Assembly: GCA_041671565.1 (NCBI GenBank)
Contig: JBAZBH010000002.1
Span: 32,000 to 95,999 of the forward strand
Length of the DNA stretch: 64,000 nucleotides
Direction of reading: 5' to 3'
Source of the DNA: Patescibacteria group bacterium
GTDB lineage: Bacteria > Patescibacteriota > Patescibacteriia > JACRDY01
The notes under the pieces are model-generated. The model was not told where the DNA came from. It made no database searches and saw only the letters and a list, made by a program, of their open reading frames with translations. Each line of letters begins with the position of its first letter. The stretch's first letter is position 1. The translations under genes were made by a program, and so were the position numbers. Below, in pieces: positions 8,565 to 53,897 of the stretch.

Positions 8565-8700
8565 TTGTTGTAATCGGTAGCAAGAGTATTCAGGGAACAG
8601 TATGCAGCCTGCCTGCGCAGGCAGGTATTCAGGGAACTATATCCACGAACGGTGAATTTGAATCCCTCCCTGATCCCCGAATACTGACCCCTGAATACTT
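8565..8700. repeat. palindromic intergenic element, 'gtattcaggg' family (copy 2)
   Basis: gtattcagggaac ... ccctgaatac arms; inner hairpin gcagcctgcctgcgcaggcaggt. Confidence 0.8.
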
Positions 8701-8707
8701 ATAAATT

Positions 8708-9868: not shown

Positions 9869-10130
9869 ATTTAAGATTTAGGATTTAAGATTTAAGAATG
9901 GTCGGTAAGCAGCGTCTAAACCTCTAAATACCATTTAAAGTTCAAAACCCTAAGTGCAAAGTTCCCCAGCATCCCAGCATACGCGGGACAAGTGCGCGGG
10001 GCAGGCAAATCAAGTTCAAAGATCAAAAGCTACCGGAGTTTTGACCTTTGAACTTGATTTGTCATTTGGGTTTTGGATTTTGTCATTTTAACTGTATCTA
10101 TTGGGTTAAAACATTTATTTCTAATTTTGT
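9869..10130. repeat. nested palindromic intergenic element (outer 'gatttaa' arms, inner 'ttcaaag' arms)
   Basis: atttaagatttaggatttaagatttaagaatg ... ttcaaag(a)tcaaaa ... tttgaacttgatttg; same architecture at 12425, 26925, 29685, 51160. Confidence 0.8.
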
Positions 10131-10240: not shown

Positions 10241-10333
10241 AATAAATAATCGCGAATAAAAACGAATATAAACGAATAAAAACTAATAATTGTTCACATA
10301 AATTCGCTTTTAATTCGCTTAAATTCGCACCAT

Positions 10334-10621
10334 ATGAATCTCAAACCACTGCACGATCATTTGATCGTCAAACCTCTGCGTGAGGACACAATGACCAAGA
10401 GCGGCATTGTGCTCCCTGAAACCGTGGACAAAGAAAAGCCGGAAAAGGGCGAAGTTTTGGCGGCTGGTCCGGGTAAGATGCTGGACAACGGCCAACTCGC
10501 GCCGATGTCAGTCAAAGTCGGTGACAAAATCATGTTTAAGAAATACTCGCCGGACGAGATTAAGATCGACGACGAGGATCTTTTAGTTATATCCGAGAGT
10601 GATGTACTGGCAATTATCTAG
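10334..10621 (+). CDS. groES: co-chaperonin GroES
   Basis: 95 aa; LKPL.D.I.VK...E.KT.SGIVLPE...EKP..G.V.A.G.G core. Confidence 0.95.
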   Translation: MNLKPLHDHLIVKPLREDTMTKSGIVLPETVDKEKPEKGEVLAAGPGKMLDNGQLAPMSVKVGDKIMFKKYSPDEIKIDDEDLLVISESDVLAII

Positions 10622-10700
10622 AGAGTTAGACAGCCAGACAGTTAGACAGCTAGAAAGCTAGCAGTCAACAAATTCTTAATTCTTAATTCTTAATTCTTAA

Positions 10701-12368
<1,668 letters not shown>

Positions 12369-12424
12369 GTCGGTTATTTAACTTAATTTTTTAAAACTCG
12401 TTCGGGTAAATCTCCGGGCGAGTT

Positions 12425-12700
12425 TTTGTATAGAAGAGATTTAAGATTTAGGATTTAAGATTTAAGAATGCCGGTATTTAGCGGTTTAAAGTTCAAAACC
12501 CTAAGTTCAAAGTTCAAATCAAGTTCAAAGATCAAAATTACTCAACCAGTTAAACCAAGAATAATATTTTGTCATTTGAACTTGATTTGTCATTTGGATT
12601 TTGAATTTTAAACTTCTAGTTGTGTTTATTGGTTTAAATGCCGGTTGCCGACCTTCTTAAATCCTACTTCTTAAATCTTAAATCTTATGTTATAATGTCC
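12425..12700. repeat. nested palindromic intergenic element (gatttaa outer / ttcaaag inner)
   Basis: agatttaagatttaggatttaagatttaagaatg ... aagttcaaagttcaaatcaagttcaaagatcaaaa ... tttgaacttgatttg ... cttcttaaatcttaaatc. Confidence 0.8.
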
Positions 12701-13883: not shown

Positions 13884-15365
13884 TTGATACTTATGACTAA
13901 ACGGACAAAAATTGTTGCGACTATCGGCCCGTCTTCAGCGCGGCCGGAAGTTTTGGTCGAGATGATCAAAGCCGGTATGGATGTGGCGCGGCTTAATTTT
14001 TCCCATGGCAACTATCACGACCATAAAATTTTATTTGAGAATATCTTGGCGGCGAGCAAAAAGGCCGGTCGAGCGGTGGCGGTGATGCAAGATTTGCAAG
14101 GCCCGCGGATCAGGGTGGGCCAGTTGCCGGGCAACGGTTTGGTCTTGGCGGCGGGCGAGCGGGTTGTCCTGCTGCCGGATAAAAAGTTTAGCGAACGGTT
14201 GGCGGAGAAATCGGCCGATAAAATTTTGCCGGTGCAATACGAACGGCTTTTTCGCGAGGTGAAGCCGGGCGCCAAAATTTTAATCAGCGACGGGCTGATT
14301 GAACTGAAAGTTAAAAAAGTTAATAAGACCCAGGCGCTGATTGATTGCTTGGTGGTAAATGGCGGCACGGTGCTGTCTTTCCGCGGGATTAATCTGCCGG
14401 GGACCAAAATCGCCGCTGAAGTGATCACGCCGAAAGACCGGGAGGATTTGCGGTTTGGCTTGAAACTCGGAGTTGACTGGGTGGCGTTGTCTTTTGTCCA
14501 GGACGCGAAGGATATTTTGGCGCTGCGAAAATTGATCAATAGTTACCAATCAGGGAGCCAGGTTAAAATTATAGCAAAAATTGAAAGAGCTTCGGCGATC
14601 AAGAATTTTGACGCGATTCTCGGGGCAGCCGACGGCATTATGGTGGCGCGGGGCGATCTGGGGATTGAGTTGCCGGCGGCCGAAGTGCCAATGCTCCAAA
14701 AAATGATGATTGGCAAATGTCTCCGAGCCGCCAAGCCGGTGGTGGTGGCGACGCAAATGTTGGAGTCGATGATGATTAATCCGCGGCCGACGCGGGCGGA
14801 AGTGTCGGATATCGCTAACGCCGTGATCGACCATACTGACGCGGTGATGCTTTCGGGCGAAACCGCGACCGGCAATTTTCCAGTGGAGTCGGTGGCGATG
14901 ATGGCCGGCACGATCCAACAAACCGAAAAATCACCTTATGATAATCTAACAGTTGATAGCCGGCTGGAGAGCGATAAGGCCGCATTTTATTTTGCCGAAT
15001 CGGTATATAATTTAACCAAAAAGTTAAAAATCAAAGCGATTGTGGTGGCAACGGCCAGCGGCGAAGCGGCGCGGCTGATTGCCCGTTTCCGGCCGGAAAC
15101 CAGAATTTTGGCCTTAACTCCCAGTCCGGCAACAGCGCGGCAATTAATTTTGAGTTGGGGGGTGGAAGGCAAAGTGGCGGCGGTCAGCAGTAATTTGAAT
15201 AAATTGATCAAGCAAGCGGTTAACCTCGCGCGCGCCGAAGGTGTGGGCCGGCCGGGCGACAAAATCGTAGTGGCCGCGGCTTACCCTTGCTTACAGCCGG
15301 GTTTTAGCCGGCAGGCGATAAGGTGCAAAGAAAATCTGAATTTGGTTAAAGTGGCAGAATTGTGA
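13884..15365 (+). CDS. pyk: pyruvate kinase
   Basis: KIVATIGP...LNFSHG N-terminus, MVARGDLG active-site motif. Confidence 0.93.
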   Translation: MILMTKRTKIVATIGPSSARPEVLVEMIKAGMDVARLNFSHGNYHDHKILFENILAASKKAGRAVAVMQDLQGPRIRVGQLPGNGLVLAAGERVVLLPDKKFSERLAEKSADKILPVQYERLFREVKPGAKILISDGLIELKVKKVNKTQALIDCLVVNGGTVLSFRGINLPGTKIAAEVITPKDREDLRFGLKLGVDWVALSFVQDAKDILALRKLINSYQSGSQVKIIAKIERASAIKNFDAILGAADGIMVARGDLGIELPAAEVPMLQKMMIGKCLRAAKPVVVATQMLESMMINPRPTRAEVSDIANAVIDHTDAVMLSGETATGNFPVESVAMMAGTIQQTEKSPYDNLTVDSRLESDKAAFYFAESVYNLTKKLKIKAIVVATASGEAARLIARFRPETRILALTPSPATARQLILSWGVEGKVAAVSSNLNKLIKQAVNLARAEGVGRPGDKIVVAAAYPCLQPGFSRQAIRCKENLNLVKVAEL

Positions 15366-15399
15366 AGGTAGGAGGTTAGGATGATAGGATGTTAGGCAG

Positions 15400-15500
15400 G
15401 AGTGTCTATTTGCTAAAGACTTTATGGCTCTATGGTTAAATGGTTTTATGGTTGGGAGTTGTCTCAAGGTGATCACTTTGGGATTAACCATTTAACTATA
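15400..15500. repeat. palindromic intergenic element, 'ggttttatgg / gttagg' family
   Basis: ggttaaatggttttatggttgggagttg ... gggattaaccatttaac; preceded by gttagg units; copies at 19028-19137 and 28440-28570. Confidence 0.7.
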
Positions 15501-17746: not shown

Positions 17747-17883
17747 GCGCGTCCAGTTTTCCACATCAACTAATCTCTCGCAGGGCCAATGCTTTGCGAG
17801 GGATTTTATTAAATAGCTCAGAGTCATGAGTCCAGAGTCCTGAGTAATAATATCTAAATTTAGACAAAATAGCAGGTTTTCTA

Positions 17884-17960: not shown

Positions 17961-18215
17961 ATGAAGAGATTCAATTGGAAAGAGGTTGTAGCGGTGGCGC
18001 TTATGTTTTTTGGGTTCGCGGGCGCGTTTGTGTATTGCCCGATTTTTGATGGGCCCGAGACCGGATTAGGCGCGCATGCAATTTTTATTGCCGGTCTTCT
18101 GGCGATGCTCGGTGGGTTTAAACTCGCCGGCGGGTTGGACTGGGCTCTTGGCTTTGATAAACCGAGGAAGCCCAGAAAATATACTGTTATTTATCCGGGG
18201 GGCTATCGCAAATAG
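17961..18215 (+). CDS. small membrane protein (84 aa)
   Basis: two predicted TM helices; own promoter and RBS. Confidence 0.45.
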   Translation: MKRFNWKEVVAVALMFFGFAGAFVYCPIFDGPETGLGAHAIFIAGLLAMLGGFKLAGGLDWALGFDKPRKPRKYTVIYPGGYRK

Positions 18216-18299
18216 TTCGCTGGCGCATCTCGTAAGCTCGTTGTTCCTCGGGGACAGCGGGCTTTTTCTTTTGGCTAAATTTAGGTATGATGTTAGTAG

Positions 18300-18420
18300 C
18301 GCAAAACTCAAAGCTCAAAAGTCAAAACCACAAGTCAAAAGGCAAAACTGTCGGAGTAGTAGAGTTTTTAGCTTTGAGCTGTGGTTTTGACTTTTGACTT
18401 TTGCGCTTTGACTTTATTTT
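18300..18420. repeat. palindromic intergenic element, 'agtcaaaaccaca' family
   Basis: gcgcaaaactcaaagctcaaaagtcaaaaccacaagtcaaaagg ... gctttgagctgtggttttgacttttgacttttgcgc; second copy 19925-20110. Confidence 0.8.
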
Positions 18421-19027: not shown

Positions 19028-19137
19028 ATAAATGGTTTTATGGTTTTATGGTTAGGAGTTGTTCCAAAATGATTCCTTCAGTATTAGCCATTCAACCATA
19101 AAGCCATATAACCATAGAACCATAAAGCCATAAAATT
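19028..19137. repeat. palindromic intergenic element, 'ggttttatgg' family
   Basis: aatggttttatggttttatggttagg ... ccataaagccatataaccatagaaccataaagccat. Confidence 0.8.
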
Positions 19138-19983
19138 ATGCATACCTATCTCCCCAGTAGCATTATCTTCCAACTCGGTTCCCTTAGTATTCATTGGTAC
19201 GGCCTTTTGGTGACGGCTGGATTTCTCGCCGGGTTGTTCGTTTTAGTCCGGCTGTTCCGGTTTTATGGCCGGCCGCCGGCCGAGGCTTATGACCTATTTT
19301 TTTATGTCATTATTTTTGGTTTACTGGGCGCCCGGATTTACTATGTGTTTTACGACTGGGCTTATTACAGCGGGCATTTAATCGATGTTTTTAAGGTTTG
19401 GCAGGGCGGCCTCGCCATCCACGGCGCCATTATCGCCGCGCTCCTGACCATTTATTTTTACTCTCGTCGCCGCGGCTGGACGGTCTTGGTGATAACTGAT
19501 ATAGTGGCGGCCTGCGTGCCGTTAGCGCTGGCCATTGGCCGCTGGGGCAATTATTTTAATCAAGAACTGTTTGGTCGGCCGACTAATCTGCCTTGGGGTA
19601 TTCCGATTAGCCTAGCTAACCGGCCGGCGGAATATATTACCAGCCAATATTTTCACCCGACATTTCTTTATGAAAGTCTGATGGACTTGGCGCTGGCGGC
19701 GGTTCTCCTGTGCTGGCATTGCCGGTGCTTAAAGCAAGCAGCCAAAAGCCAGTTAGAAGTCAGACCGGGAGAAATTACCCTAGGATTTTTATTTGGCTAC
19801 TCGCTGATCCGGTTTGTCACCGAATTTTGGCGGGTGGATTATTCGCCGCTGGTTTTTGGCCTGCGGTGGGCGCAGGTGTTGTCGGGGGTGGTGATGGTGG
19901 GAGTGATCGGTTTTTGGTTAAAAATAAAAACTCAAAACTCAAAGCTCGAAAGTCAAAACCACAGCTCAAAACTAAAAACTTAA
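19138..19983 (+). CDS. lgt: prolipoprotein diacylglyceryl transferase
   Basis: Lgt signature region GRWGNYFNQELFGRPT...PWG and conserved helices; low-complexity C-tail (KIKTQNSKLESQNHSSKLKT) is encoded by the downstream repeat element. Confidence 0.88.
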   Translation: MHTYLPSSIIFQLGSLSIHWYGLLVTAGFLAGLFVLVRLFRFYGRPPAEAYDLFFYVIIFGLLGARIYYVFYDWAYYSGHLIDVFKVWQGGLAIHGAIIAALLTIYFYSRRRGWTVLVITDIVAACVPLALAIGRWGNYFNQELFGRPTNLPWGIPISLANRPAEYITSQYFHPTFLYESLMDLALAAVLLCWHCRCLKQAAKSQLEVRPGEITLGFLFGYSLIRFVTEFWRVDYSPLVFGLRWAQVLSGVVMVGVIGFWLKIKTQNSKLESQNHSSKLKT

Positions 19984-20110
19984 TCTTCTCCGTACTTTAT
20001 ATCAAAGGCATTCAAGAGGATAAGTAAATCTTTTGAATTAGAGGTTAAGAACTGTAGTTTTGCCTTTTGCGTTGTGGTTTTGACTTTTGACTTTTGAGAT
20101 TTGACTTTAA
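19925..20110. repeat. palindromic intergenic element, 'agtcaaaaccaca' family (overlaps lgt 3' end)
   Basis: aaaactcaaaactcaaagctcgaaagtcaaaaccacagctcaaaac ... gcgttgtggttttgacttttgacttttgagatttgac. Confidence 0.8.
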
Positions 20111-20113
20111 TTT

Positions 20114-20575
20114 ATGATTCTCGCCGAAAACAAAAAAGCCCATTTTGACTATCAAATCCTCCAAAGCTGGGAGGCGGGTTTAGTTTTGGCTGGTTATGAG
20201 GTAAAGGCGGTCCGGGCCGGGCAAATTAGCCTGAAAGAGTCTTTTGTGGTGATTAATCTGAACCCGAAAACCAAGCGGCCGGAAGCGCGCCTCTTGAATT
20301 GCCATATCAATAAATACCAAAAAGCCGGGCCCCTGCCAGGCTACGATCCGACCCGCAGTCGGCGGTTACTCTTGCACCAGAAGGAAATCAATTCAATTTA
20401 TGGCAAAATTCAGCCAAAAGGCTTGACATTATTACCTTTAAGAGTGTATACTAAGGGCACTAAAATTAAAGTTGCCATCGGCCTCGGTCGCGGCAAAAAG
20501 CAGTTTGATAAACGCGCCGCCACCAAAAAACGCGAGGTGGACCGGACTTTAAAACGAAAATTGAAAAACCAATAA
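20114..20575 (+). CDS. smpB: SsrA-binding protein SmpB
   Basis: 153 aa; KKAHFDY...EAG.VL.G.EVKA...G...L.ESF N-terminal core and basic C-tail. Confidence 0.93.
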   Translation: MILAENKKAHFDYQILQSWEAGLVLAGYEVKAVRAGQISLKESFVVINLNPKTKRPEARLLNCHINKYQKAGPLPGYDPTRSRRLLLHQKEINSIYGKIQPKGLTLLPLRVYTKGTKIKVAIGLGRGKKQFDKRAATKKREVDRTLKRKLKNQ

Positions 20576-20665
20576 GCGCAGATACTCACAGATAGGCACA
20601 GATTTTCACGGATAAATTATCTGTGTAAATCTGTGCTGATCTGCGCCTATCTGTGTTCTTAAAAT
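20576..20665. repeat. 'cacagat' palindromic element (left flank of tmRNA)
   Basis: cagatactcacagataggcacagatttt ... atctgtgtaaatctgtgctgatctgcgcctatctgtg. Confidence 0.8.
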
Positions 20666-20667: not shown

Positions 20668-21068
20668 GGGGATGCCGGGTTTCGCTTGCAAGTTTACCCC
20701 ACTCTTTTGCCAGCCGAGCGCTCCCGAGCAACTCGTTAAACCGTTTGGGAAAGGACAAATGTCAACTTGTTCAACCAGGCTAAAAACGCGATCGCTTCGG
20801 CGTTCCGCGTTCCGGCCTTGGCTTCAGTCGTTGCCTAATTGCGACGGCTCATCGGTTCCCGATGTCTAATAGGGGAAAACCGGTGTTATAATTTAGACTC
20901 GGTTTAGGCGGCCGTTTGACTGCCTAATCCTAACTTGACTCAAACTCGGCTCACGGCGGATTTTGCCTGTTTCCTACCGCCGCGGCTTAAAAAACAACAA
21001 AACCGGCTAAGCTAGTAGAGTAAAGAGCGCGGTCTTGTAAGACGCGGGTTCAACTCCCGCCATCTCCA
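20668..21068 (+). ncRNA. ssrA: tmRNA (ssrA)
   Basis: begins GGGGATG and ends with tRNA-like T-arm/acceptor GGTTCAACTCCCGCCATCTCCA (acceptor pairs with the 5' end; CCA not encoded); directly downstream of smpB; a spurious 65-aa ORF overlies it. Confidence 0.8.
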
Positions 21069-21185
21069 TTTTAAAACACAGATTTACACAGATACTCACA
21101 GATAGGCACAGATTTACACAGATAATTTATCCGTGGAAATCTGTGCTGATCTGTGTAAATCTGTGCTTTAATCTGTGTCCTAATT
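21069..21185. repeat. 'cacagat' palindromic element (right flank of tmRNA)
   Basis: cacagatttacacagatactcacagataggcacagatttacacagat ... atctgtgctgatctgtgtaaatctgtgc. Confidence 0.8.
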
Positions 21186-21186
21186 T

Positions 21187-21789: not shown

Positions 21790-21862
21790 TTTTAACCACC
21801 CGGCTTGAAAGCGATGCGAATGCTACGAATTGCATGCGAATGCTACTAATAATAAGGTAATT
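21790..21862. repeat. half-copy of the 'gcgatgcgaatgctacgaatt' element
   Basis: gaaagcgatgcgaatgctacgaattgcatgcgaatgctac; full palindromic copy at 52160-52300; other half-copy at 783-832. Confidence 0.7.
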
Positions 21863-24828: not shown

Positions 24829-24842
24829 ACAGCTGATAAGCC

Positions 24843-24950
24843 GATAGGTTGATAAGTCGTTAGGTTGTTAGGTAGTTAGGTTTGCGGCCCGAAGGGCCGC
24901 CGTAACGACCTAACGACCTAACAACTTAACGACCTAACCACTAAAACCAT
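24843..24950. repeat. long palindrome of 'gttagg' units with central GC hairpin
   Basis: gataggttgataagtcgttaggttgttaggtagttaggtttgcggcccgaagggccgccgtaacgacctaacgacctaacaacttaacgacctaacc. Confidence 0.8.
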
Positions 24951-26131: not shown

Positions 26132-26929
26132 ATGATTAATTTAATTTACAAAAAAGCGGTGGTGTGGCTTTGCCCGATTGCCTTAATCATCCTTTGGGAA
26201 GAATGGCTTAATTTCCCGCGGGCGGTTTTAGAAGTTGGCCTCTGCAGCTTTTTAATTCTCGGCGGCGCGGTCTGGTATCTGACCTGGCGGCCGGTGGCGG
26301 TGCGGGAATTGCAAACTAACTGGCATCGGCAAGAATTTTGGCGCTTTGCCATTACTCCCGGGTTTTTTCTTTTGTCGGTCTATTTGTTTTTGCTGATTAT
26401 TGAGAATCGGGCGGCCGAGCACTTCTTAATTTTGGGCGCCAATTTGATCTTGTGGTTGATTTTACAAAATCTTTTTGACCGGTTTTACCGCAGTAACAAC
26501 TATCCGGCCAGCTCATTTGAAACCATCAGCGGGAATGTCAATAGCCTGTCGCTGTTTTTTTTGGTAACGGTGTGGTATAGTTTTTCCACCTTTTTGGATT
26601 TGCCGGTTTGGCAGTTGGCGTTGATGTTGGTCTTAACGGTGGTATTTTTGACTTATCAGATTATGTGGATTTCCGGCCTGACTTTTAAGGCCAGCTGGTT
26701 TTACCTGGTGATTATTGTCCTGATTGCCGTCGAGTTTTTTTGGGTGATGCTGTTTTTACCCAATACTTTCTATGTCAAAGCGATGGCGCTGACCGTAGCG
26801 TATTATCTTGCCAGCAACTTGTCCCGCAACCATTTACTCGGCCTTTTGACCCCCAAAATGGTTTGGCGCTATTTGGCGGTGGGCGGGGGGGTGTTGGTGG
26901 TGGTTTTGGTGACGGCGCAATGGCTGTGA
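26132..26929 (+). CDS. hypothetical polytopic membrane protein
   Basis: 8 or more hydrophobic helices; no recognised motif. Confidence 0.45.
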   Translation: MINLIYKKAVVWLCPIALIILWEEWLNFPRAVLEVGLCSFLILGGAVWYLTWRPVAVRELQTNWHRQEFWRFAITPGFFLLSVYLFLLIIENRAAEHFLILGANLILWLILQNLFDRFYRSNNYPASSFETISGNVNSLSLFFLVTVWYSFSTFLDLPVWQLALMLVLTVVFLTYQIMWISGLTFKASWFYLVIIVLIAVEFFWVMLFLPNTFYVKAMALTVAYYLASNLSRNHLLGLLTPKMVWRYLAVGGGVLVVVLVTAQWL

Positions 26930-27180
26930 GGCAGGATTTAAGATTTGGGATTTAATAGGATTTAAAGAAATTCGGCAATTCAAGTTTAAACCTTTAATTA
27001 TCGTTTAAAGTTCAAAACCCTAAGTTCAAGGTTCAAATCAAGTTCAAAGATCAAAAGGTGCCAGAGTTTTAGTCTTTGAACTTGATTTGAACTTTGCACT
27101 TTGAACTTTGGATTTTTAACCAAGTTATACCGCTAAGATGCTAATTTACAGGCATTCTTAAATCCTAAATCTATTGAATT
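26925..27180. repeat. nested palindromic intergenic element (gatttaa outer / ttcaaag inner)
   Basis: ggatttaagatttgggatttaa ... aagttcaaaaccctaagttcaaggttcaaatcaagttcaaagatcaaaagg ... ctttgaacttgatttgaactttgcactttgaactttgg ... cattcttaaatcctaaatc. Confidence 0.8.
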
Positions 27181-28439: not shown

Positions 28440-28570
28440 TTAGCGGTTAGGTAGTTAGGAGGATAGGAGGTTAGGAAGAAGGTTAAATGGTTTTATGGTT
28501 TTATGGTTGAATGGCTAAATAAATCCCAACCATAAAGCCCTAAAGCCATAGAACCATAGAACCGTAATTT
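28440..28570. repeat. palindromic intergenic element, 'gttagg + ggttttatgg' family
   Basis: gttaggtagttaggaggataggaggttagg ... aatggttttatggttttatggttgaatgg ... ccataaagccctaaagccatagaaccatagaacc. Confidence 0.8.
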
Positions 28571-28826
28571 TAGCAGTCAGAAAGATTAAAAAATTAAAAG
28601 TTTAAATAGCAAAGTAGCCTCGTCCCCGGGGTTATTTTTATTATGTGAAAACCGGAGAAAAGTCGTTGACAGCGGGGAATAAAGGTGGTAAGGTTTTAAG
28701 TCAACTAGAGAAAAGAAAATAAGTTTTTGGAATTAGGCTGATTTTGTCTAATTTGAGCCAATTTTCTTAACAGCCTAGTTAGGCTAGTGTTATCAGGCGG
28801 CAGGGTTTAATTTATTAAAGCAATTT

Positions 28827-29681: not shown

Positions 29682-29684
29682 CGG

Positions 29685-29945
29685 GGATTTAAGATTTAAG
29701 ATTTAGGATTTAAGATTTAAGAATGGTGGTAATCAGCGTCTAAACCTCTAAATACCATTTTAAGTTCAAAACCCTAAGTTCAAAGTTCAAATCAAGTTCA
29801 AAGGCCAAAACTCCAATAGTCTTTTGATTTTTGAACTTGATTTGAACTTTGCACTTTGAACTTTGGATTTTTAATCAAATTGTATTGTAGGATGTTAATT
29901 TACCGACCATTCTTAAATCCTAAATCTTAAATCCTAAATCTCATT
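29685..29945. repeat. nested palindromic intergenic element (gatttaa outer / ttcaaag inner), most complete copy
   Basis: gatttaagatttaagatttaggatttaagatttaagaatg ... ttcaaagttcaaatcaagttcaaagg ... ctttgaacttgatttgaactttg ... cattcttaaatcctaaatcttaaatcctaaatc. Confidence 0.85.
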
Positions 29946-30164
29946 TCTCCCCTAGAGCCTTGATTATCGTCGAACAACCCCTTGGTCGGCGGCCATCAAC
30001 GCTTTATATATTTGGCGCTGGGTTCTCTGAAAATTTAACGATAGATTAACAAAAGGTTTTATCAAGTAGTTTAAGTTAGTTAGTGTTCAGTAGTGTGTTG
30101 TACCCAAAACCAACCTCCACCAAGGCTTGATCGCCGCGGGGAGAAAACAGAAGGAGACAGGAAA

Positions 30165-31323: not shown

Positions 31324-33291
31324 ATGAAATGGCAAAACTGGTTCACTGCGTTCTTCATGATGGCGGCAGTTATACTGTTCGCCGGTTGCACTCCCGACAC
31401 GAATGATGACGGCACGGCTTCGGCCGACGCTTCGGCGACCGCTGATGACGATGCCGCCACGGACGACGACACCGCCGCGGATGATGATGCGGTGGATGAC
31501 GATGATGTTGATGATGATGTTGATGACGACGCCGATGACGACACCGCTCCGGTGTTGTGCGACGACGGCCTGTTCTGCAACGGCGTGGATACGGTTAACT
31601 CGGTGACGCAATTGTGCGTCCACACCGGCGATCCGTGCGTGGTTCAAGGTCTGGTCTGCAATGAAGCGACGAAGTCCTGCGACCCCGCCGCTACGACCAC
31701 GACCACGACGCCGCCAGCGACCACCACGACCACGGTAGCGCCGACGACAACGACGACCGTGGCTCCGACCACCACCACGACGATGGCGCCGACAACGACG
31801 ACCACGACGGTGGTGACGACGACCAGTACGACCACGACGACCGTGGGTACGCTGGTTTCCTGTTATGAAGACGCGGACGGCGACGGCTACGGTAACTGGA
31901 ATACAACGCCGGTTCAGTTCGTTGATGTCTGCCCGTTTGGCTACGCGTCGAACGGTACGGACTGCGACGAGACCGATGGGACAATTTATCCCGGTGCGCC
32001 GGAACAGCGTTATGGCATTGACAGCGACTGTGATGATGAACCGGCCGACTGCATTGACATGGTCGTAGTCAACGGTTTCTATTGCGTTGATTATGATCCG
32101 GAAACGGATATGCTGATGCTCTACGGCCCGCCGGACCAACTTGAATCCTGGAAATACCTCAACCATTTTGAAGAAAATGGGGTGACTTATTTCGATTATG
32201 TGGATGTGCCGTTCGAGGCATATTTCATGTGGTCTTTTACGGGTTGGGGCAACCGGTTCAATTTCAGCCAAATCGTCGGCGACGGCTGGTTCTATCTGGA
32301 TAACTCCCAGCCGGAGCTGGACGGGACGGAAGAAGACGCAGACGGCGTGGTCTTGAACCACGATCTCTTGGACTACGCCAACTGCGACCTGCCGACGGGT
32401 TGCGCGTTGGAAGCTTGGGGCCGTAATCCCCGTTCTTTGGTCAATGTGATGTCCGGCAGTTGGGATGATTATTGCATCGCGTTGACCATGAGCCTAGAAA
32501 ACCAAGGCGAATGGTTGGACGATGGCAATGGCAACGCCTTGGACTGGCTGGTGGCTTTGGACGAGTGTACGGCCGGCGCCGACAATACTGGCGTTGACAG
32601 CCAAGGAAGGCCGTTTTACTGGGTGAACACCGAGGATGTTCCTTGGATTCACTCCCAACAGTGCAGCCTATTAACGGTTCCGTCGGTTTTGAAGGCTTGC
32701 CTGGAAACGAAGGCGGAATTCGTCTTCTATATTCCTCCCGGCACGACCACGACGACGAGCACCACGACCACCACGAGCACCAGCACGACGACAGTGGCGC
32801 CCGGCACCACGACGACTGTGGCTCCGACGACCACGACGACGGTGGTGACCACGACTGTGGCTCCGACGACCACGACGACGGTGCCGGTGCTAAAGGGACT
32901 ATTAACCAACAACACCACGACCGATCAATTGGAGATTGATTGGCTGATCAGCGGTGGATTTGTTCTCGGCTTCCTGGAGCCATGGCCGAATACGGCGGAG
33001 ACACCGGTGGCGCTGGCAGGCATTGACCAAGTTTGCGTCGCGAGGAAGAATGGCTCGTGGCTGCAGACTTGCGTCGATTTTGATTCGGCCGGCAATGAAT
33101 TGATTTTTCCGTCGGCCGACGGAACCGTTACGACGGATTTCTGGCTGTGGATCAGTGACATCTTCGGTCAGGAGTATTGGCTTTACATTGACACTGTAAC
33201 GACGCCGTACGAGGCGCTGCGCTTTAACCTGGATGGTTTGGCAGCAGCAGCCGGCAGCGGCGACAAATGGTTACGACGAACCGCGCCGTAA
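31324..33291 (+). CDS. surface lipoprotein with poly-Asp tract, 8-Cys module and Thr/Pro-rich linkers
   Basis: lipobox LFAGC; D-rich run (DDDAATDDDTAADDDAVDDDDVDDDVDDDADDD); CDDGLFCNG...C..C..C module; (T)n-VAPTTTTT linkers between folded domains. Confidence 0.6.
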   Translation: MKWQNWFTAFFMMAAVILFAGCTPDTNDDGTASADASATADDDAATDDDTAADDDAVDDDDVDDDVDDDADDDTAPVLCDDGLFCNGVDTVNSVTQLCVHTGDPCVVQGLVCNEATKSCDPAATTTTTTPPATTTTTVAPTTTTTVAPTTTTTMAPTTTTTTVVTTTSTTTTTVGTLVSCYEDADGDGYGNWNTTPVQFVDVCPFGYASNGTDCDETDGTIYPGAPEQRYGIDSDCDDEPADCIDMVVVNGFYCVDYDPETDMLMLYGPPDQLESWKYLNHFEENGVTYFDYVDVPFEAYFMWSFTGWGNRFNFSQIVGDGWFYLDNSQPELDGTEEDADGVVLNHDLLDYANCDLPTGCALEAWGRNPRSLVNVMSGSWDDYCIALTMSLENQGEWLDDGNGNALDWLVALDECTAGADNTGVDSQGRPFYWVNTEDVPWIHSQQCSLLTVPSVLKACLETKAEFVFYIPPGTTTTTSTTTTTSTSTTTVAPGTTTTVAPTTTTTVVTTTVAPTTTTTVPVLKGLLTNNTTTDQLEIDWLISGGFVLGFLEPWPNTAETPVALAGIDQVCVARKNGSWLQTCVDFDSAGNELIFPSADGTVTTDFWLWISDIFGQEYWLYIDTVTTPYEALRFNLDGLAAAAGSGDKWLRRTAP

Positions 33292-33439: not shown

Positions 33440-33600
33440 ACGGTTAGAATGTCCAATAACCAAATTCCAATATCCAATCAATGCCCAATGCCAAAACTTC
33501 GTTATTGGACATTGGTCATTGGGTCCGCCGAATCGGCGGATGGACATTTGAGCTTGGTCATTGGTCATTGTTTTAAATCTTAAATCCTTCTTTGTGCCCC
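33440..33600. repeat. nested palindromic element, 'aatgtccaat' inner family
   Basis: aatgtccaataaccaaattccaatatccaatcaatgcccaatgccaaaa ... ttggacattggtcattgggtccgccgaatcggcggatggacatttgagcttggtcattggtcatt ... aatcttaaatcc. Confidence 0.8.
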
Positions 33601-35059: not shown

Positions 35060-35245
35060 ATAGTGATAAATAATTTCGGTAATTAGGGTTTTAAGTTCAA
35101 AACCCAAAGATTCAAAGTTCAAATCAAGTTCAAAGGCCAAAATTGGCTTCACGCTGGTTCAAGGATAGTAATTTTGATATTTGAACTTGATTTGAACTTT
35201 GGATTTTGAACTTTGAGCTTCTCATTATGTTTATTAGAATAAAGA
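35060..35245. repeat. 'ttcaaag' palindromic element (inner type only)
   Basis: aagttcaaaacccaaagattcaaagttcaaatcaagttcaaaggccaaaa ... tttgaacttgatttgaactttggattttgaactttg. Confidence 0.8.
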
Positions 35246-35266: not shown

Positions 35267-36484
35267 ATGAAGATCCTCCAGGTTCACAAGTTCTACTATC
35301 CTCACCGCGGGGCGGAGAGTTATTTTTTTAATCTAATTGAGTTACTAGAGAAACACGGGCACGAAGTGGCGCCTTTTGCTATGGCTGACGGTAAAAACCG
35401 CCCCAGCCCGTACGCGGACTATTTTACCGGGAAGCTTGATGTTAGCCGGCCGGATTATTCGCTCCGATCAATCAAGAAAATCGGCAAGATTATTTATAAC
35501 CGGCAGGCCAAGGCCGACGCCAGCCGGTTGGTTCAGAAATTTCGGCCGGATATTGTCCATGTTCATAATATCTATCATCAACTGTCGCCAGCGGTTTTAG
35601 AAGCGTTTAAGGAAGCCGGCTTGCCAGTGGTGATGACCGTGCATGACTTCAACCTGATTTGCCCCAATTATTTACTCTATACCCACGGTCGAATTTGCGA
35701 GCGATGCCAGGGCGGCCGGTTTTACAATTGTTTACTCCATCGTTGCATTAAAGATTCGTTTGGCGCTTCGGCCGTTGGCGCGGCGGCGGCTTATTTTAAT
35801 CGTCTCGCGCGGATTTATGAGAAAAATGTTGATCTCTATATCGCTCCCAGCCAGTTTTTGAAAAATAAACTGGTGGAGTTTGGTTTTCCGCCAGAGAAAG
35901 TGGTTGTCTTGCCGCATTTTGTCCCGGCGGCCAAAACTCCGGCTAAAGGCGCGGGCAAATATATTTTGTATGCCGGCGCGCTCCGCGGCAATAAAGGCGT
36001 TAAAGAATTGATCCGGGCGTTCCGTGAAGTTGAGTTTGATGCAGATTTGCAGATTGCCGGCGACGGGCCGGAGCGGGTTAACTTAGAAAAACTGGTTCAA
36101 AAATTGGGTTTGACCGAACGAGTTAAGTTCCTCGGCCAGTTAGCTCGCCCGGAGCTAACCGCCGTGATTCGACACTCGCGCCTAGTCGTAGTGCCGTCGC
36201 TTTATCACGAAGTTTTTGGCTTGGCGGCATTGGAAGCGTTGGCCGAGGGCAAGCCGGTACTCGCCTCGTCGCTTGGCGCGCTCCCCGAAGTGGTGACCGG
36301 CGAAGTCGGCCAGATCTTTAACCCGGCGGAAAAAGGCTCACTCGGCCGCAGTTTAAACTGGCTTCTTAGTCAACCGAATCTCGGCGCGATGGGGGAGAAA
36401 GGGTGGGAGGCGGTTAAAGAGAGGTATAGTTCGGCTGAGCATTATCAGAGGTTGTTGGAAATCTATAAGAGATTTAAGATTTAG
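35267..36484 (+). CDS. GT4-family glycosyltransferase
   Basis: GT-B fold; EVFGLAALEALAEGKPVLASSLGALPEVV (E-x7-E motif). Confidence 0.85.
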   Translation: MKILQVHKFYYPHRGAESYFFNLIELLEKHGHEVAPFAMADGKNRPSPYADYFTGKLDVSRPDYSLRSIKKIGKIIYNRQAKADASRLVQKFRPDIVHVHNIYHQLSPAVLEAFKEAGLPVVMTVHDFNLICPNYLLYTHGRICERCQGGRFYNCLLHRCIKDSFGASAVGAAAAYFNRLARIYEKNVDLYIAPSQFLKNKLVEFGFPPEKVVVLPHFVPAAKTPAKGAGKYILYAGALRGNKGVKELIRAFREVEFDADLQIAGDGPERVNLEKLVQKLGLTERVKFLGQLARPELTAVIRHSRLVVVPSLYHEVFGLAALEALAEGKPVLASSLGALPEVVTGEVGQIFNPAEKGSLGRSLNWLLSQPNLGAMGEKGWEAVKERYSSAEHYQRLLEIYKRFKI

Positions 36485-36720
36485 GATTTAAGATTTAAGA
36501 ATGTCGGTATCCGGTGTTTAAACCGATAACCGAGGTTAAAATGTCCAATATCCAAATCCCAATGTCCAATCAATGCCCAATGACCAAAGGTGGTAATCCC
36601 GAAGCGACCCCGTTGTGGCTTGGACATTGGTCATTGGGTCCGCCGAATCGGCGGATGGACATTGGAGCTTGGGCATTGGTCATTTATTCTTAAATCTTAA
36701 ATCCTAAATCTTTTTCTTGA
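36480..36720. repeat. nested palindromic element (gatttaa outer / aatgtccaat inner)
   Basis: gatttaagatttaggatttaagatttaagaatg ... aatgtccaatatccaaatcccaatgtccaatcaatgcccaatgaccaaagg ... ttggacattggtcattgggtccgccgaatcggcggatggacattgg ... ttcttaaatcttaaatcctaaatc. Confidence 0.85.
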
Positions 36721-38769: not shown

Positions 38770-38935
38770 TGTTTAAATTTCTAAGCATCGTTTAAAGTTC
38801 AAAACCCTAAGTTCAAAGTTCAAATCAAGTTCAAAGATCAAAAGGTGCCAGAGTTTTGGCTTTTGAACTTGATTTGAACTTTGGATTTTGGATTTTGCAC
38901 TTCTGTTTGTGTTTATTGGTTTAAACGCCAACTAC
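38770..38935. repeat. 'ttcaaag' palindromic element
   Basis: aagttcaaaaccctaagttcaaagttcaaatcaagttcaaagatcaaaagg ... tttgaacttgatttgaactttggattttgg. Confidence 0.8.
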
Positions 38936-40794: not shown

Positions 40795-40930
40795 AGGGAG
40801 ATTTAAGATTTAGGATTTAAGATTTAAGAATGGTCGGTAGCCAGCGTTTAGACTAAAAACCATAGGTTTAAGGAAACTCAATGCGGAGTTTATTCTTAAA
40901 TCTTAAATCTTAATTCTTAAATCTTTTTCT
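40795..40930. repeat. 'gatttaa' outer-arm palindrome with a distinct short core
   Basis: gatttaagatttaggatttaagatttaagaatg ... tattcttaaatcttaaatcttaattcttaaatc. Confidence 0.8.
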
Positions 40931-41252
40931 CTAATTTTAGCCGTTTTTTCTGCCTGTCAGAAAAGGCGGTTTTTTTAGTTGACAAAAATCTCTGACCGTG
41001 GTAAGGTAGGGCGTTAAGTTCGTTGACAATGGAATGTCACACTAAATAAAAAGGGAGGAGGAATCCTCGCTGATTCCTCGCATTTTTTGTTTTTAACCAA
41101 AAAAACCAAAAGGAGGAATTAAAAAGGGTTCAGTTCAGAGTCAAAAAATAGAGAATCTTAGAAAAATTCAGAAACCGCCCCTTTGGGGCAATAAAACAAA
41201 AAAATTAGAATCACCGCGCCCCAGAAAGGCGCACAAACCATGGAGTAGGAAA

Positions 41253-42596
41253 ATGAAACGCAGTTTGTTCCTTTTTTGTCTCATCATCACCGTGATGATG
41301 GGCGTTGTCGCTTGCAATAGCAGTGATGACGATGACAACGGAGCCACCGCCGACGACACCAATGACGGCGGCGACGACATCGATGACGACGCGATTGATG
41401 ATGATGGCAGTGACGACACCGGCGACGACGACACGGTCGCAGAAACGATGAATCTGAAAATGTCGGTGCCTCTTACCGAGTACACCGCCGCCGCCCAGTA
41501 TGGGCGATTCAGTGAAGTGTGGGAAGATGGTACGCCGGGCGATTTTTATGCCGAAAGTCCGGTGAATTATAGCGCCGACTCCGGCCAGATTTTTGCCGCG
41601 GCTGACGCGCCGGTTACTGTGGTGCGGATTACCGTCGACATTATCAAGGCCGACGGCACGCCGGTTGGTCCTGGCATTACGCCGACGCCGACATTCACGC
41701 GGAACGGGAGCCCGTTGTACCCTTCGGGGTACTATACGGATCCGAACGAAAATCCGGATACTGGCACCAGCGGCTGGATTCTCTATCCCGCCGGTACCGG
41801 CACGACCACGACGACCACGCAGGCACCCACTACCACAACGACTCAGGCGCCGACCACGACGACCACGGTGGCACCGACTACCACGACCACCGAGTTGCCG
41901 ACCACTACGAGCACGGTGGCGCCTACTACGACGACTGTGGCTCCGACGACGACCACCACCTCTGAGCCGCCGACCACGACGAGCACGGTGGTCACCACCA
42001 CGACGGGGATGACCACGACGACGATTCCGCCGACGGTGACGGAGATTTTCGACGGGGTTACCTCGGTGGAGATCAGTAATCTGCAGGTTGTCAACGGCAA
42101 TTTGCAGAATTTTTCCCATGTGGCGGCGAATGGCAGTTCGCTGGGCACGCCTATCTCGGCGGCCAATGTGATTGCGATTCAGGTCGCGATCGACTATGTC
42201 GATCCCGCGAATTTCCCGGAACTGCTGGTGAGCGGCGTGACGGCGGCGGGTTCATATCCTGTCGTGACCTCAGCCATCGCCGGTCTGGAATACACCATTC
42301 GCGTCCGGCTGGCCGATGGCAGCTCGGGCTGGGCCTGGCTGGACGCCAGTTTTGCCGTTATTGGCGGGACGATTCAGCCGATTGGGCCGCCGATCAACGG
42401 GAATCGGGTCGTTCGCGATGCGTTCAGCATCACGGCCGGCCTTTGGAGCCGCGCGGCCGTGGAAGCCCTGAATGGCGGCACCGTGACCGGGCTACTTTTC
42501 CGGCAGTGCACGGAGTATGCCGACGGGACGAAGGAATGCGTTACTCGGCCGCTCAGTGTCGGCAGTGTCAATCTCGGCGGCGACGCCTATTATTGA
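41253..42596 (+). CDS. surface lipoprotein with poly-Asp tract and Thr-rich linkers (paralogous architecture to 31324..33291)
   Basis: lipobox VVAC; SSDDDDNGATADDTNDGGDDIDDDAIDDDGSDDTGDDD; QAPTTTTT/VAPTTTTT linker repeats; linker-coding DNA (accacgacgacc)n near-identical to that in 31324..33291. Confidence 0.6.
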   Translation: MKRSLFLFCLIITVMMGVVACNSSDDDDNGATADDTNDGGDDIDDDAIDDDGSDDTGDDDTVAETMNLKMSVPLTEYTAAAQYGRFSEVWEDGTPGDFYAESPVNYSADSGQIFAAADAPVTVVRITVDIIKADGTPVGPGITPTPTFTRNGSPLYPSGYYTDPNENPDTGTSGWILYPAGTGTTTTTTQAPTTTTTQAPTTTTTVAPTTTTTELPTTTSTVAPTTTTVAPTTTTTSEPPTTTSTVVTTTTGMTTTTIPPTVTEIFDGVTSVEISNLQVVNGNLQNFSHVAANGSSLGTPISAANVIAIQVAIDYVDPANFPELLVSGVTAAGSYPVVTSAIAGLEYTIRVRLADGSSGWAWLDASFAVIGGTIQPIGPPINGNRVVRDAFSITAGLWSRAAVEALNGGTVTGLLFRQCTEYADGTKECVTRPLSVGSVNLGGDAYY

Positions 42597-42721
42597 CCGG
42601 CTGTCCGGCCACTTTTATTCACAGCACGACACGCGGCGGGGAACCATTCCCCGCCGCCTTTTTAATATAAAAGTCCAGAGTCCAGAGTCCAGAGAAAGCC
42701 AAGAGTTTAGAGTTCAGAGCG

Positions 42722-43090
42722 TTATTTTTTAAAACTTCTAAGTTTAGCTACAAAAGCGTAGGTTAATTTAGAAGTTTCTATTAGCAGGCCTTCAGTTTTT
42801 CGGAATTGCTCTGGCTTGCCAAAACCTAGGCTTTTGGCAATTAATAGCTGGGTTTCCAATTCCATTAGCGAACCGCGACTGATTAAGATAAATCTGGCAA
42901 AATCGCCGTCGGATCTTCGGCCGTAGCCTTCAGCGATGTTAGATGGGACAGAAACCGCCGCTCGGCGGATTTGCGTGGTTAGACCAAAAAGCTCGGCTTG
43001 GGGAAACGAAGCGGTTAACTCATAGACGGTTTTGACCAAATCAATGGCTTTTTGCCAAACGATTAGGTCTTGGTAGGATTTGAATAGCAT
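42722..43090 (-). CDS. four-helix-bundle protein ('23S rRNA intervening-sequence protein' family)
   Basis: YQDLIVWQKAIDLVKTVYELT...SNIAEGYGRRS...RGSLMELETQL is the signature of the TIGR02436-type family; here free-standing on the minus strand, not inside an rRNA. Confidence 0.8.
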   Translation of the reverse strand: MLFKSYQDLIVWQKAIDLVKTVYELTASFPQAELFGLTTQIRRAAVSVPSNIAEGYGRRSDGDFARFILISRGSLMELETQLLIAKSLGFGKPEQFRKTEGLLIETSKLTYAFVAKLRSFKK

Positions 43091-43433
43091 AGTTTTAGGT
43101 TATTAATTAATGGTTTAATTATACCTAATCAATCATTAACTAAATCTAAAATAATCATTAAATAATTCTAAACTGGGATCTTTATTCTCCGGACTCCGGA
43201 CTCCGGACTTTTGACCCAAAAAACATTGACAGGTGGCCTTGCTTATGGTAAGGTGGGATGTCACAAAAGAGCAGAAAGCAGGCTGGATTTAAATGGCTAA
43301 AATTAGCAGAAGAATGTGATATATGGCATGTGGTATATGGGAGTTTCCCCATATACGATATACCACATACCATTTAGTTCTTAAGTGGTTAAAACAAGAA
43401 TAAAGAATAAGAAATTAAGTAGCTATCTCGTCT

Positions 43434-44584: not shown

Positions 44585-44715
44585 GTTTTTAGTATTGCAC
44601 GGTTTAAAGTTCAAAATCCAAAGATTCAAAGTTCAAATCAAGTTCAAAGACCAAAACTACTACATATTTTAACATTTGAACTTGATTTGAACTTTGGATT
44701 TTGAACTTTGCACTT
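44585..44715. repeat. 'ttcaaag' palindromic element
   Basis: aagttcaaaatccaaagattcaaagttcaaatcaagttcaaagaccaaaac ... tttgaacttgatttgaactttggattttgaactttgc. Confidence 0.8.
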
Positions 44716-44721
44716 ATAATT

Positions 44722-45149: not shown

Positions 45150-45300
45150 ACAGGGAATTTCTAATTCTTAATTTAAAATTTTTAATGAATTTATAATGTT
45201 TAATTCTTAATTTTAATTTCCAACCAAGTTCGTGGTTATTTAAAATTAAACCTTAAAAATTGATTAAAAATTAGGAATTTTAAATTAAAAATTATTGAGC
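45150..45300. repeat. AT-rich palindromic element (copy 2 of the 7106-7253 family)
   Basis: aattcttaatttaaaatttttaatgaatttataatgtttaattcttaatt ... ccaaccaagttcgtggttatt ... aaaattaggaattttaaattaaaaatt. Confidence 0.8.
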
Positions 45301-51050: not shown

Positions 51051-51098
51051 AGTTCGGTACCAAGTTCGTCAGCGTCTTGTTTAGTCAAGCTGACAAAA

Positions 51099-51127
51099 AC
51101 CACCCGGCATGTGCTGGGTGGTTTTTA
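51099..51127 (+). terminator. rho-independent terminator
   Basis: cacccggc-atgt-gctgggtg stem followed by gtttttatttggg. Confidence 0.75.
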
Positions 51128-51159
51128 TTTGGGAGAAATTAGGCGTTGGCGTTTGATGT

Positions 51160-51375
51160 TTAAACCAAAAGCCAGGGCTAGAAGTTCAAAGCTTAAAATC
51201 CAAAGTTCAAATCAAGTTCAAAAATCAAATGCTATTCTTGGCTAACCGTGAAGCCACCTTTTGGCATTTGAACTTGATTTGAACTTTGAATCTTTGGATT
51301 TTGAACTTCTAACCATGGTTGAGAGTTTCAACGCCGATTATTGACATTCTTGAATCCTAAATCTTAAATCTATCT
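51160..51375. repeat. nested palindromic element (ttcaaag inner, gatttaa-type outer right arm)
   Basis: aagttcaaagcttaaaatccaaagttcaaatcaagttcaaaaatcaaatg ... tttgaacttgatttgaactttgaatctttggattttgaac ... cattcttgaatcctaaatcttaaatc. Confidence 0.8.
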
Positions 51376-52159: not shown

Positions 52160-52300
52160 TTTTCTTATTAACCATGCGGCTGAATAGCGATGCGAATGCT
52201 ACAAATTACATGCGAATACTACAAATGATACGAATTTACTGGTCTTTATTCGTTGCATTCGTATGTAATTCGTAGCATTCGCATCGCTTCCAATCGGGTA
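52160..52300. repeat. palindromic element 'gcgatgcgaatgctacaaatt' (full copy)
   Basis: gaatagcgatgcgaatgctacaaattacatgcgaatactacaaatgatacgaatttactgg ... cgttgcattcgtatgtaattcgtagcattcgcatcgcttccaatc. Confidence 0.8.
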
Positions 52301-53840: not shown

Positions 53841-53876
53841 TTTGGCGGACGGTTTAATTTAGCCAATTTTTACTAA

Positions 53877-53897
53877 GGCCCCCGAAAGGGGGTTTTT
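53877..53897 (+). terminator. rho-independent terminator
   Basis: ccccc-gaaa-ggggg stem followed by ttttt. Confidence 0.8.

Follow-up and report, generated by a model that had tools for sequence, protein, structure and literature searches.

A composite hairpin at positions 29683-29945 of a 64,000-nt stretch of contig JBAZBH010000002.1 (Patescibacteria group bacterium, GenBank assembly GCA_041671565.1; the whole stretch is hereafter called the window) appears to be one copy of a dispersed selfish hairpin family with fast turnover. The hairpin elements of the window were interpreted as derivatives or relatives, without an open reading frame (ORF) and similar to miniature inverted-repeat transposable elements (MITEs), of PF05635 gene cassettes of the intervening sequence (IVS) type, and a probability of about 0.6 was given to this reading. 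More generally, it is very probable that these hairpins are selfish, dispersed repeats and do not form a conserved host system. What the sequences show is how the elements are built, that they are dispersed and unconserved in position, that hairpin arms match cassette arms and that inverted arrays are specific to PF05635 genes. Each element consists of short tandem units, mostly heptamers, arranged as two inverted arrays around a small loop. The cassette form, found once in the window and widely across bacteria, shares this design, but its loop holds a PF05635 gene of approximately 120 codons together with the upstream region of that gene. The gene-less hairpins are best read as its non-autonomous relatives, mirroring the rRNA IVSs which occur with and without an ORF.

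The focal element is 263 nt long and has outer arms around inner arms. Its RNA fold showed a free energy of -98.4 kcal/mol compared to -44.0 +/- 4.0 kcal/mol for 200 dinucleotide shuffles (z = -13.5). The outer arms (29683-29727 and 29906-29950) are 45 nt long, 84% complementary and made of GATTTAA-type heptamers, with (GATTTAA/GGATTTA)n ... AAGAATGGT on the left and ACCATTCTT(AAATCY)n on the right. The inner arms (29757-29810 and 29822-29875) are 54 nt long and 78% complementary, with NNNCAAA heptamers around the core GTTCAAATCAAGTTCAAA, and enclose a central loop at 29811-29821. The linkers between outer and inner arms (29728-29756 on the left and 29876-29905 on the right) pair with each other in part.

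Further copies of the focal family were found across the window. Full copies on the forward strand are located at 12430-12690, downstream of GroEL and right after a canonical terminator (12393-12430), and at 26928-27175. The forward copy c9869 (9865-10075) begins on the stop codon of a major facilitator superfamily (MFS) gene (9866-9868), which overlaps its first unit; its inner arm is interrupted by a GC-rich insertion of 42 nt and its right outer arm is missing. Copy c51160 (51140-51375) is reversed, on the minus strand, without the left outer arm and preceded by a terminator at approximately 51095-51130. Inner-only copies, all forward, are at 35085-35225, 38788-38905 (with parts of the linkers retained) and 44598-44720, while a forward outer-arm copy without the inner hairpin is at 40795-40930, next to a canonical terminator (40939-40971). 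Outer arms with a diverged inner type of AATGTCC/CAATGCCC heptamers were identified at 36466-36716 (forward), where the upstream ORF, a glycosyltransferase ending at 36484, extends 5 codons into the element, and in reversed form on the minus strand at 53898-54110 (c53900), preceded by a terminator at approximately 53875-53897. The same inner type without clear outer arms is at 33440-33575 (c33440, forward). All copies listed in a preliminary description of this DNA exist, with corrections to the arms of c9869, c51160 and c33440 and to the orientation of c51160 and c53900.

The nested copies could be aligned over their full length, including the non-palindromic linkers. The left end was identical at 30/30 positions in five outer-arm copies and all terminate in ...TAAATCT, which shows sharply defined ends. 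No target-site duplication was found, as no direct repeat flanks any of the eight outer-arm copies. Two of 12 copies (c51160 and c53900) are reverse-complemented though the surrounding genes all point one way, which ruled out the expected uniform orientation relative to transcription or replication. Unit number differs between copies and both arms of a copy diverge in concert. The modular nesting put forward in the preliminary description was retained in part only: linker sequence persists in part in the inner-only copies, and both inner types can be aligned as diverged forms of a single design, in which TCAA stands between two runs of heptamers. The nesting pattern is explained equally well by loss or divergence of segments and by nested insertion.

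An inverted-repeat finder (arms of at least 22 nt, at least 80% complementary, span of at most 320) returned 33 pairs in the window and 0 in each of 20 block shuffles. Thirty of the 33 were intergenic, while coding sequence makes up 84% of the window. Judged by fold and by eye, the window holds approximately 34 hairpin elements with a sum of approximately 4.9 kb, which is 7.6% of its length and nearly half of its approximately 10.4 kb of non-coding DNA, and 32 of the 45 gaps of at least 50 nt contain one. This confirmed the earlier claim that palindromes of short tandem units fill the intergenic gaps; in addition, every further unit family named there was present, together with a few more. At least 12 families can be told apart by sequence, almost all copies are without an ORF, and arm complementarity is imperfect (71-97%). 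The dominant unit period was 7 or 14 nt in 22 of the 34 elements, 8 or 16 nt in 6 and 10 nt in 4, so that the intergenic tandem heptanucleotides of short tandemly repeated repetitive (STRR)-type sequences are found here. The density of long inverted repeats was 0.52 per kb compared to 0-0.1 per kb in most of approximately 165 other loci, which included the closest JGI GroEL relatives. A search of the window against Rfam 15 at the gathering threshold matched only transfer-messenger RNA (tmRNA) and tRNA-Asp, with no family matching the hairpin elements. No rRNA gene lies within the window; all copies are between protein-coding genes or adjoin the tmRNA gene, and none is inserted in a 16S/23S helix as rRNA IVSs are.

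The window's sole PF05635 gene (42722-43090; E = 1e-38, also TIGR02436) is the only minus-strand gene within the polysaccharide region. Its product belongs to a four-helix-bundle family labelled '23S rRNA intervening-sequence protein', with 2GSC as the closest solved structure. The gene is positioned exactly between an arm of (AGTCCAGAG)n at 42672-42719 and an arm of (CTCCGGACT)n at 43187-43209, thus in the loop of a tandem-unit palindrome, and the whole minus-strand cassette (42672-43209) comprises the two arms, the gene and its own upstream region. The arms match at 25/28 positions (z 10.3). This link to PF05635 and rRNA IVSs was absent from the interpretation in the preliminary description.

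The flanks of 25 PF05635 genes were compared, from Candidate Phyla Radiation (CPR) bacteria, Gamma- and Deltaproteobacteria, Flavobacteriales, plasmids of Cyanobacteria and viral contigs. Significant inverted arrays of 7-11-nt tandem units were present on both flanks of 22 of them. The other CPR genes (two in L070 and one each in L048, L167 and L025) are all likewise arrayed, each with a different unit. The rest of the sample consisted of two more Patescibacteria, Thiorhodovibrio, Geoalkalibacter, a Flavobacteriales metagenome-assembled genome (MAG), eight viral contigs and six plasmids from cultured Nostoc, Calothrix, Pseudanabaena, Picosynechococcus and Riemerella. Of the six plasmid genes, five are flanked on either side by inverted heptamer arrays and one has only tandem heptamers; plasmid-borne homologues are almost all from Cyanobacteria, plus Riemerella. 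In a control with the window and five relatives, 4/4 PF05635 genes passed the flank-array test compared to 4/141 other genes, and the latter four were explained by the tmRNA, two genes between hairpins of the same family and one cassette neighbour.

Several PF05635 genes with tandem-unit flanks are wedged in operons (L174 1501-1866, L175 1501-1896, L176 1501-1869, L179 301-660 and L180 301-657). In Thiorhodovibrio and Geoalkalibacter the gene is inside bacteriophage exclusion (BREX) operons (brxC/pglY), in the Flavobacteriales MAG between sdhA and sdhB, and on plasmids it separates cas6 from cas4 or cmr2 from cmr3, which suggests a selfish insert tolerated by operons. Read on the sense strand, the array 5' of a PF05635 gene is as a rule rich in purines and in many cases similar to a Shine-Dalgarno sequence (CAGGAGT, AGGAGGC, GGAGATAAGGAG, GGAAGAAGG), and the array 3' of the gene is the complementary, pyrimidine-rich one, hence the cassette polarity is consistent. 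The homologues are often on contigs under 2 kb, consistent with short-read assembly breaks at the flanking arrays.

Arms of Falkowbacteria cassettes matched ORF-less hairpins of the window. The L048 arms matched the GTTGAAAGTTATAAAG-family hairpin at 56668-56750 (28/29 and 29/30), the arms of one of the two L070 cassettes (L070b) matched the AACATTAAAAC-family hairpins at 58966-59048 (38/41) and 60128-60210 (32/33), and the arms of the L025 cassette matched the focal inner hairpin (41/47 and 33/36). The Falkowbacteria genome has this one GTTCAAA-armed cassette (L025) and at least 10 ORF-less copies, as would be expected if an autonomous element had given rise to non-autonomous derivatives. In the literature, of which our coverage was incomplete so that its silence is weak evidence, no account was found of the CPR palindromes or of four-helix-bundle genes tied to tandem-unit arms.

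The window is a Patescibacteria contig related to Candidatus Falkowbacteria; its SmpB, IF3, L35 and L20 are 60-73% identical to, and syntenic with, those of a Falkowbacteria genome. Three syntenic relatives, L167, L169 and L170, were found through GroEL homologues in the protein database, with identities of 85, 82 and 81% (81% for L170). At this distance the intergenic DNA is too diverged for nucleotide alignment, which leaves exact insertion boundaries undefined; GroEL relatives from JGI metagenomes (72-74% identity) were too remote for use, and the surroundings of their GroEL genes showed no hairpins. L170 showed gaps of 33-62 nt with plain terminators (GC stem and T-run) and no tandem-unit hairpins, compared to 133-336 nt with elements in the orthologous gaps of the window (33 vs 133 nt between NusA and YidC, and 62 vs 336 nt downstream of GroEL). 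L167 and L169 have hairpins of their own, of families in common with the window but at other loci. L169 carries a GTATGCAGGG...CACGAATGGTG element downstream of GroEL, the homologues of which in the window follow NusA and Wzy (64/87 identity), and L167 carries AGTCCAGAG palindromes after YidC and pyruvate kinase. In the SmpB-tmRNA gap, Falkowbacteria locus L010 has a GTTCAAA-type hairpin and the window a CACAGAT type. Elements are therefore present or absent at orthologous sites, as MITEs are, at genus to family distance (L170 empty; L167, L169 and L010 with other families). Rapid gain, loss and movement is the best reading of these sequence comparisons.

The elements were described earlier as lineage-specific, which is not supported. 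The 18-mer core is repeated in the Falkowbacteria genome (11 loci), in a Gottesmanbacteria genome and in a MAG that resembles CPR but is labelled Gammaproteobacteria. Sungiibacteriota, Saccharibacteria and other MAGs have single occurrences of it, inside hairpins of a similar kind, and the same architecture surrounds PF05635 genes in several phyla. Lone 18-mer matches in approximately 60 unrelated genomes were mostly taken as chance. MAGs labelled Nitrospirae (L038), Proteobacteria (L039), Nitrospinota (L064) and Gammaproteobacteria (L024, L036, L047, L067 and L072) carry the same heptamer hairpins, and L047 and L067 show CPR-like synteny with the window; these may be either mis-binned contigs or elements crossing phyla. 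The suggestion of REP/MITE-like repeats (REP, repetitive extragenic palindromic) is supported by the common linkers, the sharp ends, the unconserved positions among syntenic relatives and the occurrence of the same families at different loci.

The foremost alternative is that the hairpins are terminators, insulators or mRNA 3'-end stabilisers selected by the host between co-directional genes, as proposed for REP sequences and bacterial interspersed mosaic elements (BIMEs). The elements are almost exclusively intergenic and often directly 3' of stop codons, their stems are very stable, a convergent gene pair encloses one hairpin, and no canonical terminator apart from the element is present in the focal gap. 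The transcribed strand also showed a weak excess of G·U pairs (149 vs 113) and a slightly lower summed minimum free energy (-1693 vs -1642 kcal/mol), an asymmetry too weak to keep a strictly RNA-strand-specific function. Against these points, the syntenic L170 does without elements and has short GC-stem and T-run terminators at the same gaps, orthologous gaps carry different families in different genomes, and both orientations are present. Strong canonical terminators are immediately before or after many elements and not inside them (12393, 51095, 53875, 42633, 33314, 40939 and 28611), and the top terminator-like sites of the terminator scan (42633, 33314, 40939 and 28611) are among these, which makes the elements redundant there. 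The element stems are AT-rich, 25-100 bp long and without the T-run of an intrinsic terminator, therefore the scan showed no strong canonical terminator inside them. The terminator or insulator system offered in the preliminary description is thus not the best reading of a primary role, given the empty gaps of L170, the adjoining terminators, the two orientations and the weak strand asymmetry, and host-selected signals are considered unlikely. The placement between co-directional genes that was claimed for all elements is not universal, as shown by the element between convergent genes (E24834) and the AGTCCAGAG arms around the minus-strand gene.

Among known systems, the reading of the elements as relatives of PF05635 cassettes draws on the rRNA IVSs. 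The 23S IVS of Coxiella burnetii is a 428-nt 'selfish genetic element' with an S23p (PF05635) ORF of unknown protein function in the loop of its stem; the stem has two or three tandem GACAGAT heptamers, a number which varies between strains, and the first of these repeats is where RNase III cleaves (PMC4990558). PF05635 ORFs were also reported in rRNA insertions of CPR bacteria, where the domain was called functionally uncharacterised (PMC11270868). The window elements resemble the IVSs of C. burnetii (helix 45) and Leptospira in the long terminal-inverted-repeat stem, the optional PF05635 ORF in its loop (seen in the window and in the L025, L048 and L070 cassettes, the arms of which match ORF-less window elements), the existence of ORF-less and ORF-containing forms and stem heptamers of variable number and nearly the same unit (GACAGAT in Coxiella, CACAGAT in the window). 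Both also have a sporadic distribution, regarded for IVSs as selfish or horizontally transferred (PMC4990558, PMC11270868). They differ in that the window copies are between protein genes, very dense, of at least 12 families and almost all ORF-less, and in that RNase III excision was demonstrated for IVSs and is proposed here. By analogy, a read-through transcript of an element would fold into a duplex of 25-100 bp and be cut by RNase III, which would remove the element from the RNA and uncouple the neighbouring cistrons. Such RNA-level excision would render insertions nearly neutral and could explain why they are tolerated next to tmRNA, in rRNA, within operons and immediately 3' of stop codons. 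Unit number would drift by replication slippage, and the arms may stay complementary through selection for the stem, palindrome-templated repair or both.

Bacterial MITEs include Correia/NEMIS of Neisseria, Nezha of cyanobacteria and the Rickettsia palindromic elements. Like these, the window elements are small (80-260 bp), non-coding and non-autonomous, with terminal inverted repeats and multiple dispersed intergenic copies that are present or absent among relatives, and some MITEs give genes new C-termini and stop codons, as for Lgt below. Unlike MITEs, they showed no target-site duplication and, within the window and the syntenic loci, no cognate transposase; their termini are tandem-unit arrays, and what matching arms enclose is a PF05635 gene, a family not known to include transposases. 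Enterobacterial BIMEs share the mosaic combination of palindromic units in extragenic DNA and differ in unit types, size and organisation, without tandem heptamer substructure. A heptamer-repeat counterpart is found in the STRR sequences of Cyanobacteria. Heptamer direct repeats (TAACTGA and related) were described in Cyanobacteria, Beggiatoaceae and Bacteroidetes (PMC4679880), and these are likewise intergenic, of mixed unit types and phylogenetically patchy, but mostly direct repeats upstream of start codons and not paired inverted arrays or long hairpins. No published link of heptamer repeats to PF05635 was found, with the same incomplete coverage and small weight as above.

Several points weigh against derivation of the hairpins from PF05635 cassettes. 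Three of the 25 PF05635 genes have no clear inverted partner array, the outer (GATTTAA)n arms were seen on no cassette, and only one cassette is present in 64 kb. We know of no catalytic or DNA-mobilising activity for PF05635, and the MITE analogy is thus drawn without a demonstrated mobilising enzyme. The association could also be reversed, if hairpins were there first and PF05635 genes inserted into their loops. As the closest relative is 85% identical in GroEL, there is no strain-level pair of filled and empty sites and insertions were not observed directly. The window has no RNase III gene (rnc), and cleavage of the elements by RNase III is proposed by analogy. Finally, the Coxiella PF05635 protein may not even be made (PMC4990558).

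A wider interpretation is tentative. A PF05635 gene with inverted tandem-unit arrays might constitute a pan-bacterial mobile cassette, the protein of which, pentameric and Avd-like, would recognise its own arrays as DNA or RNA. It is conceivable, at the same low confidence, that rRNA IVSs, cyanobacterial STRR-type arrays, the genes wedged in cas, BREX and sdh operons and the CPR palindromes are all manifestations of it. Equally speculative is that units and protein co-diverge and that the protein helps to spread or maintain the element, with host RNase III excision making insertions harmless.

Little weight was given to movement of the hairpins in single-stranded form as REPIN- or IS200/IS605-type elements by a Y1 transposase (RAYT/TnpA) encoded elsewhere, which would make PF05635 incidental. 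REPINs are likewise extragenic, hairpin-forming inverted doublets in multiple copies, with several families or 'flavours' per genome and no target-site duplication, and together with their RAYT gene they are the closest conceptual parallel for a single-copy gene flanked by repeats that are dispersed elsewhere (PMC3116915); the compensatory divergence between subfamilies of the window also resembles theirs (PMC3116915). However, no Y1 or other transposase, and no reverse transcriptase, was found in the window, and no transposase in approximately 85 kb of syntenic loci of relatives. The arms are arrays of variable numbers of 7-10 nt units and not one conserved REP of 20-40 nt with a tetranucleotide guide, and the gene within the arms is that of a four-helix-bundle protein and not a Y1 transposase (PF05635 in 22/25 cases).

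A similarly small chance was given to palindromes made locally by mutation alone, in which slippage expands units, intrastrand template switching (quasi-palindrome correction) copies arms, and nothing is dispersed. The differing unit numbers, the concerted divergence of arms and the strain-variable heptamers of Coxiella are as such a process would leave them. One-sided arrays without a partner also agree with it: (CTAGACAG)5 and (AATTCTT)6 in the GroES-GroEL gap (10618-10712) have no inverted partner, and another one-sided array is in L025 at approximately 2170. This process probably shapes the arms, yet it cannot alone explain the dispersal, as different loci have common non-repetitive linkers and identical 30-nt ends and the same composite sequences occur at non-orthologous sites in different genomes. 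Assembly artefact, as collapsed or chimeric low-complexity sequence, has next to no probability: metagenome assemblies can make fold-back chimeras and many PF05635 genes on very short contigs suggest assembly breaks at repeats, but a separate ENA contig (L001) agrees fully with the window along 6.5 kb that include three elements, the imperfect arms and frame-preserving positions beside intact genes are those of real sequence, related elements recur in many independent assemblies, and finished genomes and plasmids of cultured strains have the same architecture.

Other hairpin families of the window followed the same design. The GTATTCAGGG family is present at 4380-4510 in the NusA-YidC gap, as the homologue of the L169 element downstream of GroEL, and at 8578-8702, with a nested GC-rich palindrome CCTGCCTGCGCAGGCAGG. 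Hairpins of the AAAACTCAAAG/AGTCAAAACCACA family are at 18296-18416 and 19925-20110, those of the GGTTAGG/ATGGTTTT family (8-nt unit) at 15365-15480 and at 28445-28610, next to a canonical terminator (28611-28638), and a ATGGTTTT-family hairpin at 19028-19137. The TAGGTTGT/TAACGACC hairpin with a GC-rich tip (24830-24940) has convergent genes on either side. A GCGAATGCTACGAATT-family hairpin is at 52180-52292, with half copies at approximately 780-830 and 21810-21850. The AGGATTTAGG-family hairpin (1385-1470) has 31-nt arms that are 97% complementary and is preceded by a terminator at approximately 1355-1385, the very AT-rich AATTTNTAATG family is represented at 7095-7250 (62-nt arms) and 45150-45296, and the ATAAATAACAAATAAAT hairpin (58485-58640) has 42-nt arms that are 88% complementary. 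In addition, an A-rich/T-rich heptamer hairpin was found at 61340-61465, a ATATGGCATGTGG hairpin at 43310-43380 and a CGAATAAAAA hairpin (10-nt unit) at 10243-10332, upstream of GroES. Arms without a partner, from the GCGAATGCTAC and AGTCCAGAG families, are at approximately 780-830, approximately 21810-21850 and 17819-17845. Small GC-rich hairpins (CCCC...GGGGCAGGC; CCTGCCTGCGCAGGCAGG) are found inside AT-rich heptamer arms in the window (9960-10003 and 8604-8625), in L041 (approximately 370-520) and in L028 and L036, and form a further level of nesting by mini-elements, the ends of which are of GCCTGCC/GGCAGGC type.

Nearly all genes of the window are on the forward strand. They include NusA, YidC, GroES/GroEL, pyruvate kinase, ProRS, a DsbA-like protein, Lgt, SmpB, tmRNA, IF3, L35 and L20, a large glycosyltransferase/Wzy/Wzz surface-polysaccharide region and an extracytoplasmic function (ECF) sigma factor with DUF5667. 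As noted in the preliminary description, one element encodes the C-terminal tail of Lgt: the last approximately 17 residues and the stop codon (KTQNSKLESQNHSSKLKT*, 19925-19983) are within the left arm of the hairpin at 19925-20110, and homologues end earlier. An ORF at 18076-18390 was rejected as a gene ending inside a hairpin, being unlike the membrane proteins at that position in L167 and L170; it is probably spurious and owes its existence in part to the repeat, and a different frame may hold the true gene. The tmRNA gene (20668-21071) has the window's maximum flank inverted-repeat score (106). CACAGAT-family hairpins are located just upstream (20575-20660) and just downstream (21072-21186) of it, of which the latter can also pair with the former across the gene, and they resemble the RNase III processing stems around rRNAs; another hairpin of this family is at 63030-63108. 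In L010 a GC-rich direct repeat of approximately 68 nt (GGGGACCTGTCCCC...GAAGTAAGGCGCAGCCGC) is on either side of the GTTCAAA-type hairpin upstream of tmRNA (2953-3232), and a GIY-YIG-like ORF follows the tmRNA gene. Long in-frame coding repeats of ACGACC/ACCACG type (31480-31840, 32740-32876 and 41799-42024) are in three large ORFs without Pfam match in the surface-polysaccharide region, which are probably variable cell-surface proteins.

CPR genomes are approximately 1 Mb in size and usually called streamlined. With nearly half of the non-coding DNA of the window made of hairpin repeats, selfish DNA can thrive even in small CPR genomes. In practice, the hairpins break short-read assemblies, yield spurious ORFs and altered C-termini as in Lgt, and probably set the sites of RNA processing, for instance around tmRNA; annotation pipelines ignore all these effects. 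The link to PF05635 provides a testable origin for three puzzles, namely the nature and spread of rRNA IVSs, the abundance of heptamers in Cyanobacteria and other phyla, and the role of the four-helix-bundle family. If the pan-bacterial cassette were true, selfish elements would include a new class in which the partner protein is not a transposase, and PF05635, a large orphan protein family, would gain a function.

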